This document shows positions 25,457 to 42,671 of a stretch of DNA of 64,000 nt, piece after piece. The stretch is from an uncultured archaeon (GTDB taxonomy: Archaea > Aenigmatarchaeota > Aenigmatarchaeia > CG10238-14 > SCSR01). Every line of letters starts with the position of its first letter. Within the stretch, counting starts at the first letter, position 1. The notes under the pieces are model-generated. The model was not told the origin of the DNA. It was given only the letters and a program-made list of their open reading frames with translations, and searched no databases. A program made the translations under genes and the position numbers. The stretch is from the NCBI GenBank assembly GCA_964601215.1, contig CAZRMN010000001.1, positions 334 through 64,333 of the forward strand, read 5' to 3'.

Positions 25457-25873
25457 ATGAAGTTCAAGTTTTTGGACATTACTACAGCTGATGTAGCCTT
25501 TGAAGCTTATGGAAAAACTCTAGAGGAACTTTTTGCTAATGCTGCTTTAGCAATGTTTGAAGTTATGATTAATACTAAGCAAATAGAAAAAAAAGTTGAA
25601 AAAAGAATCAAGCTTAAAGGAAATGATTTAGAATCTTTAATGTTTAATTGGTTAAACGAACTTTTGTTTTTTTATGGCTCTGAAAATCTAGCCTTTTCCG
25701 ATTTTAAAGTAAAAATCGATGAGAAAAATTTAACTCTAGAAGCAAAGGTTTTTGGGGAGCCAATAAATCCAGAGAAGCATGAAACTAGAACTGAGGTAAA
25801 GGCTGCTACGATGCATAAAATGAAAGTTTGGAAAGAAGAAACTTGGAAAGCTCAAGTGATACTAGATATCTAA
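25457..25873 (+). CDS. Archease (RtcB activator)
   Basis: MKFKFLDITTADVAFEAYGKTLEELF is the archease signature. Convergent with rtcB, 4-nt overlap. Confidence 0.75.
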   Translation: MKFKFLDITTADVAFEAYGKTLEELFANAALAMFEVMINTKQIEKKVEKRIKLKGNDLESLMFNWLNELLFFYGSENLAFSDFKVKIDEKNLTLEAKVFGEPINPEKHETRTEVKAATMHKMKVWKEETWKAQVILDI

Positions 25874-27359
25874 CCCTTTACTACGCCTAAAGGAACTAAT
25901 CTTACAACTCTTTTACTTATTCCTGCTTTTTCAGTAACTAAAGCAACTTCATCTATCTCTTTATAAACTTGTGGAGCTTCCTCTGCAACTACTTTCCAAC
26001 TGGCAGCTCTTACCAAAATTCCCCTACTAGCCAAATTTCTAGCAACAACTTCTCCCCTAAAAAGCTTCAAAGCTTTTGACCTAGACTTTAACCTTCCTGC
26101 TCCATGAGCAGTAGAATAAAATGTCTCTTTTGCTGTTTTTGCAGCAACTAAAACATAACTTGCTGAACCCATACTACCAGGAATTATCACCGGCTGGCCT
26201 ACGCTTTGATAATCTTTTGGTATATCTTTAAAACCTGCAGGGAAAGCCCTTGTAGCTCCTTTCCTGTGCACATAAACCTTTTTCTTTTCTCCGTTTATTT
26301 CATGTTCTTCTACTTTTCCAATGTTATGAGCAACATCATACATAACTTCTAAACCAATCTCTTCTTGTTTCATTCCTAATATTTTCATTATACTTTCTCT
26401 GACCCAATGAGTAATCATTTGCCTATTACACCAAGCAAAATTTGCTGCACAAGCCATCGCACCAAAATAATCTTCCAGTTCTTTAGTACCAGCAGGAGCA
26501 TAGACAAGTTCTCTATCTGGTAATTTTTTAATTAAATCTCTAAACCTTGATTCGAGCAAATGCAAATAATCAGTACAAACTTGATGGCCGAAGCCTCGAG
26601 AGCCAGTATGAATCATCACACAAACTTGTCCTTTTTTTTCAATCCCGAAAACTTTTGCTATTTCTGGAAGAAAAATCTTATCCACTTTTTGAATCTCAAG
26701 AAAATGATTTCCTGCCCCTAAACTTCCAAGCTGAGGAGCACCTCTTTGCAAAGCTTTTTTTGAAACTTTATCAGCATTAGCTTGCTTCATACAGCCATTT
26801 TCTTCCAAGTGTTCTAAATCTCTTTCTGTTCCATAACCTTGTTCAACTGCCCATCTTGCTCCAGCCTCTAAAACCTCGTTTTGTAGTTGAGAAGGAGAAA
26901 GTTTAATTTTACCTCCTCTTCCAACTCCAGAAGGAACATTCTTAAAAATCGAATCTAATAATTCTTTTAGCCTTGGCCTTACTTGTTCTTCTGTTAAGTT
27001 TGTAGTTAATAACCTAACACCACAATTGATATCAAAACCTATCCCACCTGGTGATAAACCACCTTCTTCACAATCTAAAGCTGCAACCCCCCCGATAGGA
27101 AAACCTTGGCCGCTTATAAGTATACTTATAAGCTATAGCCGAAATGCATATCGGGAAGGGCGATACTGTGTTTGTAAATCCCTGGTAAAAAAGCTACATT
27201 TGCTATTTGTTCTATAGCTCCTTCTTCTACTTGTTTCAAAAGTTTTTTTGATAAAAAAAGCCATGCTGGCACACGCATTCCTGACTTTGCTCCTTTCGGG
27301 AGTTCCCATATGCATGGTCCAATTTCTTTAAGTTTTTCTTTCAGTACTATTTCAATCAC
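25870..27359 (-). CDS. rtcB: RtcB RNA-splicing ligase, interrupted by a 29-nt BHB-type intron. Exons 27135..27359 and 25870..27105
   Basis: Exon 1 ends PDMHFGY; exon 2 (different frame) begins GFPIGGVAALDCEEGGLSPGGIGFDINCGV. This collinear RtcB motif is interrupted by exactly 29 nt. Confidence 0.8.
27106..27134 (-). other. Candidate bulge-helix-bulge intron in the rtcB mRNA: AGCUUAUAAGUAUACUUAUAAGCGGCCAA
   Basis: 3-nt bulges AU|A and AA|G flank a 4-bp helix GGCU/GGCC, with a 9-bp inner palindromic hairpin. Cuts after the second bulge nucleotide reproduce the HFGY-GFPIGG junction. Confidence 0.6.
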
Positions 27360-42284: not shown

Positions 42285-42316
42285 TAATTATAGTTTAGAT
42301 TTAAAAGAAAAAGAAA

Positions 42317-42420
42317 TGGGGACGCTGGGATTTGAACCCAGGTCTGAGCCTCCCAAGGGCCCGATCCTAGACCAAACTAGACGACGTTTGCGGTATGTAT
42401 CCCCGCAGTCAAGCGTCCCC
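42317..42420 (-). tRNA. tRNA-Pro (anticodon UGG) with a 29-nt insertion between acceptor stem and D stem (pre-tRNA nt 8-36)
   Basis: Acceptor GGGGACG/CGUCCCC plus discriminator A, T arm CUGGG-UUCAAAU-CCCAG, anticodon loop CUUGGGA. D arm matches the neighbouring tRNA-Pro only if 29 nt (plus 42385..42413) are removed, which also gives U8. Confidence 0.6.
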
Positions 42421-42586: not shown

Positions 42587-42671
42587 TGGGAGAGCTGGGA
42601 TTTGAACCCAGGCTACAGCCGTTCTGTACAAACCCCAGGGCCGCGTCCTAACCAAGCTAGACTACCCTCCC
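42587..42671 (-). tRNA. tRNA-Pro (anticodon GGG) with an 11-nt intron at canonical 37/38
   Basis: Acceptor GGGAGGG/CUCUCCC, D arm GUCU-AGCUUGGUUA-GGAC, anticodon stem CGGCC/GGCUG, loop CUGGGG[UUUGUACAGAA]C, T arm CUGGG-UUCAAAU-CCCAG. Intron at plus 42622..42632 with a minimal BHB. Confidence 0.7.

Follow-up and report, generated by a model that had tools for sequence, protein, structure and literature searches.

A gene for tRNA-Pro(UGG) on the minus strand of a 64,000-nucleotide (nt) stretch of contig CAZRMN010000001.1, which comes from an uncultured archaeon of the Aenigmatarchaeota, carries 29 extra nt near its 5' end. This entire stretch is hereafter referred to as the window. Our analysis of the gene and its relatives indicates that it is probably split after nucleotide 4 of the tRNA by a 13-nt mini-intron of the type recognised by the splicing endonuclease, with the 7-mer found further upstream, which repeats the acceptor stem's 5' strand, serving as an element of the leader. 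On whether this copy is a functional splint acting in cis, maintained by selection and enabling splicing with a 5' exon of only 3–4 nt, we are evenly divided.

At this locus the minus-strand heptamer GGGGACG (42420–42414) is fully Watson-Crick complementary, at 7/7 positions, to CGTCCCC (42324–42318). It is followed by the 29 nt CTTGACTGCGGGGATACATACCGCAAACG (42413–42385, minus strand) and then by U8-C9 and the GTCT strand of the D stem. The complete order on the minus strand is ...aatatatt GGGGACG CTTGACTGCGGGGATACATACCGCAAACG TCGTCTAGTTTGGTCTAGGATC GGGCC CTTGGGA GGCTC AGAC CTGGG TTCAAAT CCCAG CGTCCCC A tttc..., where CTTGGGA is the anticodon loop, with UGG at 42355–42353; the T arm is normal and CCA is not encoded by the gene. 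An initial annotation of the window, made from its letters alone, had described a perfect acceptor stem of 7 base pairs (bp), a normal T arm, the loop CUUGGGA and 29 nt preceding U8, and both coordinates and sequence are as it gave them. Standard tools report the gene differently. ARAGORN and the Rfam tRNA model (36.1 bits) span 42317–42391 only, and in the Rfam alignment of this call the acceptor stem, GCAAACG against CGUCCCC, contains three non-pairs; it follows that both finders overlook the upstream strand. Two other identities were considered and rejected. The model for transfer-messenger RNA (RF00023), whose gathering score is 47, matched 42314–42420 (minus strand, permissive filters) with only 27.5 bits; we attribute this match to the resemblance that the upstream strand, together with the 3' strand and T arm, bears to a tRNA-like domain with a large insert. 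In the case of a split, trans-spliced tRNA, all pieces turned out to be contiguous within 104 nt, with no separate loci.

The minimum free energy (MFE) structure computed by RNAfold for 42317–42420 combines the helix between the 7-mer and the 3' strand with a hairpin, GAC-UGCGG...CCGCA-AAC-GUC, and in this way recovers the GAC/GUC and UGCGG/CCGCA helices with an AAC bulge that had been noticed in the initial annotation. The insert contains a GGGG of its own (42404–42401), positioned directly 5' of a loop which starts with GGA and resembles a splice site. ACG is present at both edges of the insert (GGGG-ACG-...-ACG-UCG), and consequently the junctions 4/5, 5/6, 6/7 and 7/8 would all yield the same mature sequence. 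To this hairpin we applied the topology 5'-h-H-B1-...-H-B2-h-3', in which the central helix H comprises 4 bp and the cut falls after the second nt of each 3-nt element (B1 and B2); in what follows cuts are marked by a slash. The resulting features, all on the minus strand, are listed below in the order in which they would be transcribed.

42414–42420, minus strand: GGGGACG, the putative 'surrogate' or 'decoy' strand, a second version of the acceptor 5' strand within the predicted leader, pairing at 7/7 positions with the 3' acceptor strand.
42411–42413, minus strand: spacer CTT, separating the surrogate strand from the outer helix and lacking sequence conservation among the homologues.
42407–42410, minus strand: 5' strand of the outer helix h, GAC plus a T that is unpaired or alternatively paired; these leader nucleotides pair with G7-U8-C9 in the MFE structure (GAC 42410–42408 with GUC 42385–42383), closing the 3' bulge.
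42403–42406, minus strand: 5' strand of the central helix H, GCGG, its last two bases being G1 and G2; covaries with the 3' strand.
42401–42404, minus strand: predicted exon 1, GGGG (G1–G4), the start of the tRNA called by ARAGORN after the 13 nt are removed.
42400–42402, minus strand: predicted 5' splice site B1, G3 G4 / A, the first three nt of the hairpin loop and of the relaxed, loop type; GGA in 11/11 homologues.
42388–42400, minus strand: predicted intron of 13 nt, ATACATACCGCAA, placed at tRNA position 4/5 by the cut rule.
42390–42393, minus strand: 3' strand of the central helix H, CCGC, from RNAfold and covariation.
42387–42389, minus strand: predicted 3' splice-site bulge B2, A A / A5, of 3 nt and closed by H and h, from RNAfold and the homologues.
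42317–42387, minus strand: predicted exon 2, tRNA nt 5–73, ending at the discriminator A, from ARAGORN, Rfam and the intron-less orthologues; it contains the 3' strand of h (G7U8C9, 42385–42383), the anticodon UGG (42355–42353) and the 3' acceptor strand CGTCCCC (42324–42318).

Excision according to this rule joins GGGG (42404–42401) to ACGUCGUCU..., and the joined product, ...UGC-GGGG-ACGUCGUCUAG..., holds a complete acceptor strand. Once the 13 nt are removed, ARAGORN finds a 75-nt tRNA-Pro(UGG) with a 7/7 acceptor stem that starts at the internal GGGG. A scripted enumeration of all excisions that obey the rule and rebuild both the 7/7 acceptor and U8 returned this single candidate in the window, and when the 29-nt insert was shuffled a hidden excision of this kind appeared in 0.26% of trials. 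The product spliced in silico is near-identical to intron-less orthologues beginning GGGGACGTCGTCTAG..., so that the mature tRNA-Pro(UGG) sequence predicted in the initial annotation was correct. The region thus displays what is expected of the bulge-helix-bulge (BHB) type of intron: a 4-bp H with cut sites after the second nt, an outer helix h at the 3' bulge and restoration of a canonical tRNA. The strict hBHBh' form was also tested and failed, because the motif lacks an inner helix h' and has its 5' site within a hairpin loop of 9 nt; the predicted motif is of the relaxed bulge-helix-loop (hBH/BHL) subclass rather than a strict BHB. Two variants of this solution were discarded. The register with the AAC bulge (UGCGG:CCGCA, cut AA/C), combined with the cut in the loop, gives GGGG+CGUCG and a broken acceptor, and its extra pair has no equivalent in the homologues. 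A second splicing event removing the 16-nt leader has no supporting motif, and RNase P is the preferred agent for this step.

The same cut rule restores ...PDMHFGY/GFPIGG... in the rtcB gene of the window itself, and for introns in the D loop it gives GGCTAGCT/AACGAAAGTCTAGAA/TGG in locus L104, to be compared with GGCTAGCTTGG in L142, where the D loop has no intron. It also agrees with the structure of the ARMAN-2 EndA–RNA complex, where the bond after the bulge's central nucleotide is cleaved (PMC12397907), and a DPANN endonuclease has been shown to accept a 13-nt intron of the hBH/BHL form as its substrate (PMC3239211). These results alter several of the conclusions reached in the initial annotation. 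Having tested junctions 7/8, 8/9 and 9/10 only, it found no canonical BHB and allowed for a different mode of processing; a relaxed hBH/BHL motif, a kind familiar from other DPANN archaea, is nevertheless present inside the insert. Its suggestion of a relaxed BHL-type intron at an unusual 5' position holds as to the kind of intron and the region, but its boundaries do not: the predicted intron measures 13 nt, not 29, and the cut rule places it at 4/5 and not at 7/8. The upstream GGGGACG, which had been taken for exon 1, is most likely part of the leader, with the acceptor strand rebuilt from the internal GGGG and the downstream ACG. A better cloverleaf that makes use of the inserted sequence, named there as grounds for abandoning the 29-nt intron, does exist in the sense that the inserted GGGG would form part of the acceptor strand.

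Loci of relatives were collected by alignment of the neighbouring gene product Rpp21, a subunit of RNase P (80 loci from genomes and 80 from metagenomes, plus a few by exact-protein look-up). The homologues of Rpp21 are named Candidatus Aenigmatarchaeota, members of DPANN. In many of the loci genes for tRNA-Pro(GGG) and tRNA-Pro(UGG) sit just upstream of the Rpp21 gene, as they do in the window, and relatives at this same syntenic place, next to tRNA-Pro(GGG) and Rpp21, carry an intact tRNA-Pro(UGG). The loci closest by Rpp21 (L004, L005, L086 and L087, 80–81% identity) have lost the tRNA–Rpp21 synteny and provided no tRNA for comparison. The architecture described above is common to 11 distinct Aenigmatarchaeota tRNA-Pro genes at Rpp21-syntenic loci, namely that of the window (identical to those of L002, L003 and L084), one each in L021, L007, L096, L111, L104, L117, L137 and L142, and two in L025, for GGG and UGG. 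The comparison with orthologous tRNA-Pro genes, which the initial annotation had recommended as a check, therefore yielded an intron-less product equal to the predicted one and a set of genes sharing the design.

The introns of these 11 genes are 12–17 nt long, and B1 is invariably GG/A while the rest of the loop varies. The pairs forming H are GCGG:CCGC, GAGG:CCTC, GAGG:CCTT (with a G.U pair), CATG:CATG and GGCG:CGCT. In a nine-sequence alignment H is 100% paired and includes a double change from A:U to C:G; RNAalifold independently predicts this helix in the same register. The outer helix h, which measures 2–5 bp in the homologues (ACA:TGT, ACG:CGT, TGACG:CGTCG or CGACG:CGTCG), is 77% paired in the alignment, with a double change from G:C to A:U. 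B2 reads AA/A, AT/T, AA/T or AA/G, each time in the acceptor register. A covariance model of the region (R1) recovered the same genes at 50–69 bits and the two of L025 at 30 and 17 bits; run over all fetched loci, it found no members beyond those identified by the rule. Overall, the architecture is kept with compensatory changes over about nine lineages.

The two genes of L025 are particularly informative. Both have three G residues before the cut (CAT-GGG/A and GGC-GGG/A) and an exon 2 that starts with G4 (AA/GTTG), moving the predicted junction to 3/4, whereas all genes outside L025 have four G residues before the cut and an exon 2 that starts at N5 (ACG, TTG or TCG). Such a shift in register is required if the internal G residues constitute exon 1 and is not required if the upstream copy does. 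This coherence of register is the strongest single argument for the 4/5 intron: the internal G residues behave as tRNA positions 1–4, apparently constrained by the CCCC of the 3' strand.

Upstream, all 11 intron-bearing genes also carry a copy of the acceptor strand, each of whose seven positions pairs with the 3' strand (7/7). Among 102 genes without a 5' intron the best match within 40 nt upstream was 5/7, and none reached 6/7 (Fisher 2e-15 for co-occurrence of copy and 5' intron, shared ancestry ignored). A 7/7 match was found in 0/20,400 shuffled upstream regions; the match is not due to chance. The first G of the copy lies 14–16 nt from the real G1, or 21 nt in one gene, and in the window the predicted leader is the 16-nt sequence GGGGACGCUUGACUGC. 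In the nine-sequence alignment the copy is 100% paired with the 3' strand, one pair showing substitutions in both strands and another in a single strand: the copy follows the change from A5:U68 to U5:A68, and a C:G to U.G change also keeps the pairing. In L104, L117, L137 and L142 the copy reads GGGGTTG and the real strand GGGG+TCG, both of which pair with CGACCCC, implying that it is the pairing that is conserved and not the identity of a duplication. The spacers around the copy have diverged among the homologues. RNAfold assigns the helix between the copy and the 3' strand a probability close to 1 in each of the 11 genes; when the copy is destroyed, H becomes less probable in several of them (from 0.99 to 0.88, 0.98 to 0.82, 0.91 to 0.32 and 0.77 to 0.52).

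The position of promoter-like sequences was examined by plotting as a histogram words with at least 7/8 matches to TTTAWAWA; a position weight matrix of the upstream regions contained too little information and was dropped. In normal tRNA genes TATA-like words peak at -34 to -32 from G1. Measured from the copy, they are found at -31 (L021), -32 (L096), -34 (L104), -29 (L137) and -39/-40 (L025 and L142). This spacing suggests that transcripts start near the copy and that the leader, including its share of the helices, is transcribed.

It follows from the involvement of leader bases in the splicing helices that splicing would have to precede the action of RNase P, and the following pathway may be proposed. 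The primary transcript would begin at or just upstream of the surrogate strand, which would pair with the 3' acceptor strand. The precursor would thereby acquire an acceptor/T domain resembling that of a tRNA, and the splicing hairpin would project from between this 'acceptor' and the D arm. The splicing endonuclease would cut at GG/A and AA/A. The exon-1 fragment, with its 3' end GGGG>p, would then be held by the 7-bp surrogate helix plus 3–5 bp of h; in a transcript lacking the surrogate this short fragment would be held by 3–5 bp only. The surrogate may in addition protect the G-rich splicing hairpin against invasion by the C-rich 3' strand. RtcB would join ...GGGG>p to HO-ACGUCG..., after which the real strand, now contiguous, would replace the surrogate, and RNase P would remove the 16-nt leader. 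If it is a functional splint, the surrogate would also force splicing to take place ahead of RNase P. We infer the cleavages, the ligation, the order of the steps and the role of the surrogate from the arrangement of the motif and the copy.

Several observations weigh against this interpretation. The mature sequence is the same whichever GGGG serves as exon 1, and the motif is a relaxed one, with neither an inner helix h' nor a closed 5' bulge. Covariation rests on few independent changes. In the subgroup with GAGGGG the RNAfold optimum is a helix shifted by two bases, the BHL register having low probability, and in the window itself H can gain a fifth base pair, U-A, which produces the AAC bulge and a mis-splicing register. 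When the product spliced in silico is folded with nearest-neighbour energies, the surrogate helix takes up almost the entire probability at the expense of the real acceptor, which means that RNase P would have to capture a minority conformer; in these models the energetics of secondary structure alone do not explain how the real strand wins before RNase P acts. The same type of folding predicts no cloverleaf even for the mature tRNA. Finally, no EndA domain was detected in the 30 open reading frames (ORFs) of 150–360 amino acids (aa) scanned in the window, and the scan for TATA-like words revealed no clear TATA box in the window itself.

The chief competing explanation for the intron boundaries takes the upstream GGGGACG as the genuine exon 1 and has all 29 nt, with a junction anywhere from 4/5 to 7/8, removed through a very relaxed or unknown recognition. 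The upstream 7-mer is strongly conserved and fully complementary to the 3' strand, RNAfold predicts the resulting helix for every homologue, and the 7-mer is placed like a normal G1 relative to the TATA-like boxes, all of which would suit an exon. Moreover, the GAGG/CCTC subgroup has an alternative 4-bp helix, TGGG:CTCA, that would cut at 5/6 of the upstream copy. However, no bulge-helix is conserved at the upstream junction: the alternative helix is paired at 3/4 positions in the window (TGGG:CGCA), L021 and L007 and is absent in L025. The standard topology puts the 5' cut 3' of the 5' strand of H, that is, after the internal GGGG, and an upstream exon 1 would leave unexplained the constant GGGG before the loop cut, or the GGG with a compensating G4 in exon 2. 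We therefore hold this explanation to be quite unlikely. A search for a BHB, strict or relaxed, with the upstream copy as exon 1 and junctions from 4/5 to 7/8 found a 4/4 helix in the GAGG/CCTC subgroup only. In L096, L104, L111, L117, L137 and L142 the copy can pair with the intron's CCTCA in a BHB-like fold with cuts at 5/6. This fold is probably a by-product of two GGGG copies sharing one complement, although in the genes of this subgroup it could be an alternative processing route.

If the 13-nt intron is real, the copy might still be a functionless leftover of a partial 5' duplication, of recombination or of integration. It occupies the ancestral promoter-proximal position, and L032 and L165 share their tRNA body with L111 and L096 but lack the 28-nt insert and differ in their flank, which speaks for this reading. 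Yet across the 11 genes spacers, loops and flanks have diverged widely while pairing of the copy is kept at all seven positions, its changes all being pairing-preserving (U.G for C:G; A:U to U:A with a matching change in the 3' strand), and an intron-bearing gene without the copy was never seen, either in the 11-gene set or in the loci scanned; a mere scar accordingly strikes us as unlikely. There is also the reading according to which the locus is a decaying pseudogene, or the 75-nt call starting with GCAAACG is the gene. ARAGORN and Rfam do report exactly 42317–42391, but the three non-pairs in the called acceptor stem, the compensatory conservation over about nine lineages and the retention of the syntenic place beside tRNA-Pro(GGG) and Rpp21 make this very improbable. 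The reading that we prefer remains the 13-nt intron at 4/5 with the upstream 7-mer in the leader.

The genes flanking the locus encode ribosomal proteins and the RNase P subunit Rpp21. The neighbouring tRNA-Pro(GGG) gene (42587–42671, minus strand) contains an 11-nt mini-intron (42622–42632) at the canonical position 37/38, with a central helix paired at 3/4 positions (CTGG:ACAG) and an end at AA/C; ARAGORN's default mode labels this gene tgg, its intron mode tRNA-Ser. Further away, the minus strand carries a ligase gene at about 25870–27200 with the motifs …NCGVR… and …HTGSRGFGHQ…, on the basis of which we take it to be rtcB. It is interrupted by a 29-nt insert (27106–27134, minus strand) whose surroundings resemble a strict BHB, with GGCT:GGCC as H, AT/A as B1, AA/G as B2 and an inner hairpin formed by GCTTATAAG and CTTATAAGC, and removal of the insert restores the frame ...PDMHFGY/GFPIGGVAA.... 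The mRNA for the ligase would consequently itself need splicing of the tRNA type. The initial annotation had pointed out that this insert and the one in tRNA-Pro(UGG) are of equal length; the rtcB insert is indeed 29 nt long, but the equality is a coincidence, the predicted tRNA intron being of 13 nt. Adjoining rtcB on the plus strand is a 138-aa ORF (25457–25873) that begins MKFKFLDITTADVAFEAYG... and, judged by eye, presumably encodes a protein like archease, the activator of RtcB.

The lineage as a whole is rich in mini-introns, which occur in the D loop, the anticodon loop, the variable region and the T loop. Single tRNA-Pro genes in L104 (1335–1467), L117 (180–319) and L137 (989–1123) contain three mini-introns each: besides the one in the 5' part of the acceptor stem, others interrupt the D loop or D arm, the anticodon loop or the variable region. 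For these genes ARAGORN reports either nothing or the wrong isotype. Applied to the first 83 loci plus the window, ARAGORN found no tRNA in 38/84 sequences. The tRNA-Pro(UGG) genes of L111, L032 and L165 have the same anticodon-loop intron. The bodies of the genes in L032 (1884–1971) and L165 (about 582–672) are identical or near-identical to those in L111 (65–180) and L096 (586–704); the former pair is devoid of the 28-nt 5' block present in the latter, and the upstream flanks are unrelated, which points to a recent gain, loss or recombination at the 5' end.

Genes of this kind are mis-called or missed by ARAGORN and Rfam, which return a truncated gene with a mismatched acceptor, a wrong isotype or, in several relatives, no gene at all, and such omissions feed the recurrent impression of DPANN genomes that lack tRNAs. 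The locus illustrates how a tRNA can accommodate a protein-spliced intron very close to its 5' end, with a second acceptor copy that appears to substitute for the real strand until ligation. Near-identical tRNA bodies with and without the 28–29-nt block offer a clean system in which to follow the gain and loss of non-canonical introns. Should the copy indeed act as a splint, it would represent a previously undescribed class of cis-acting element in pre-tRNA processing and would partly explain the 'missing' tRNA genes of DPANN.

Non-canonical introns are a familiar feature of archaeal tRNAs and include some within the acceptor stem (PMC12397907); so as not to lose introns close to the ends, tRNAscan-SE 2.0 lengthens its candidates by 60 nt (PMC8450103), and inserts in DPANN EndA proteins have been linked with disrupted tRNA genes (PMC5829648). 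The closest counterpart is the 13-nt intron at 59/60 of the ARMAN-2 pre-tRNA-Cys(GCA) (PMC3239211; PMC12397907), which agrees with the present intron in size and in type of motif, combining a 4-bp helix with a single closed 3-nt bulge and placing the other cut in a loop; it obeys an identical cut rule and presumably depends on the same enzymes (splicing endonuclease and RtcB). The tRNA-Pro(UGG) intron differs from it in its position in the 5' strand of the acceptor stem, the 4-nt exon 1, the helix strands supplied by the leader and the conserved second acceptor copy. An intron at 3/4, described as an 'extreme case', is found in some tRNAs of Thermoproteales (Sugahara et al. 2008, as cited in PMC4090602). 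As in the genes studied here, it lies within the first nucleotides of the acceptor, its motif must involve the leader and splicing must come before RNase P; the junction in L025 is predicted at 3/4 as well. The phylum is different (Crenarchaeota as opposed to DPANN) and the motif in our case is a mini-BHL. The reviews searched mention no upstream acceptor copy for the Thermoproteales 3/4 genes. In the literature searched, whose reach did not extend to those 3/4 cases, we found no description of a 4/5 intron in this phylum accompanied by a conserved, leader-encoded second acceptor strand.

Split tRNAs of Nanoarchaeum equitans and some Crenarchaeota resemble this gene in that sequences outside the mature tRNA pair to hold the exons together and a relaxed BHB, recognised by the same endonuclease, lies at the boundary between leader and exon. 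Here, in contrast, there is one contiguous transcript, and the tether would be an acceptor copy pairing with the gene's own 3' end instead of a leader:trailer duplex. The canonical 37/38 intron, exemplified by the neighbouring tRNA-Pro(GGG), has in common with the 4/5 intron the cut rule, the AA/N intron end typical of the lineage and the mini-intron size; unlike in the 4/5 case, its exons are held by the folded body of the tRNA and no leader element is needed. Judged by its sequence, the locus thus belongs to the relaxed kind of BHB introns, and what appears to be new about it is the 4/5 position combined with a probable copy of the acceptor strand in the leader.

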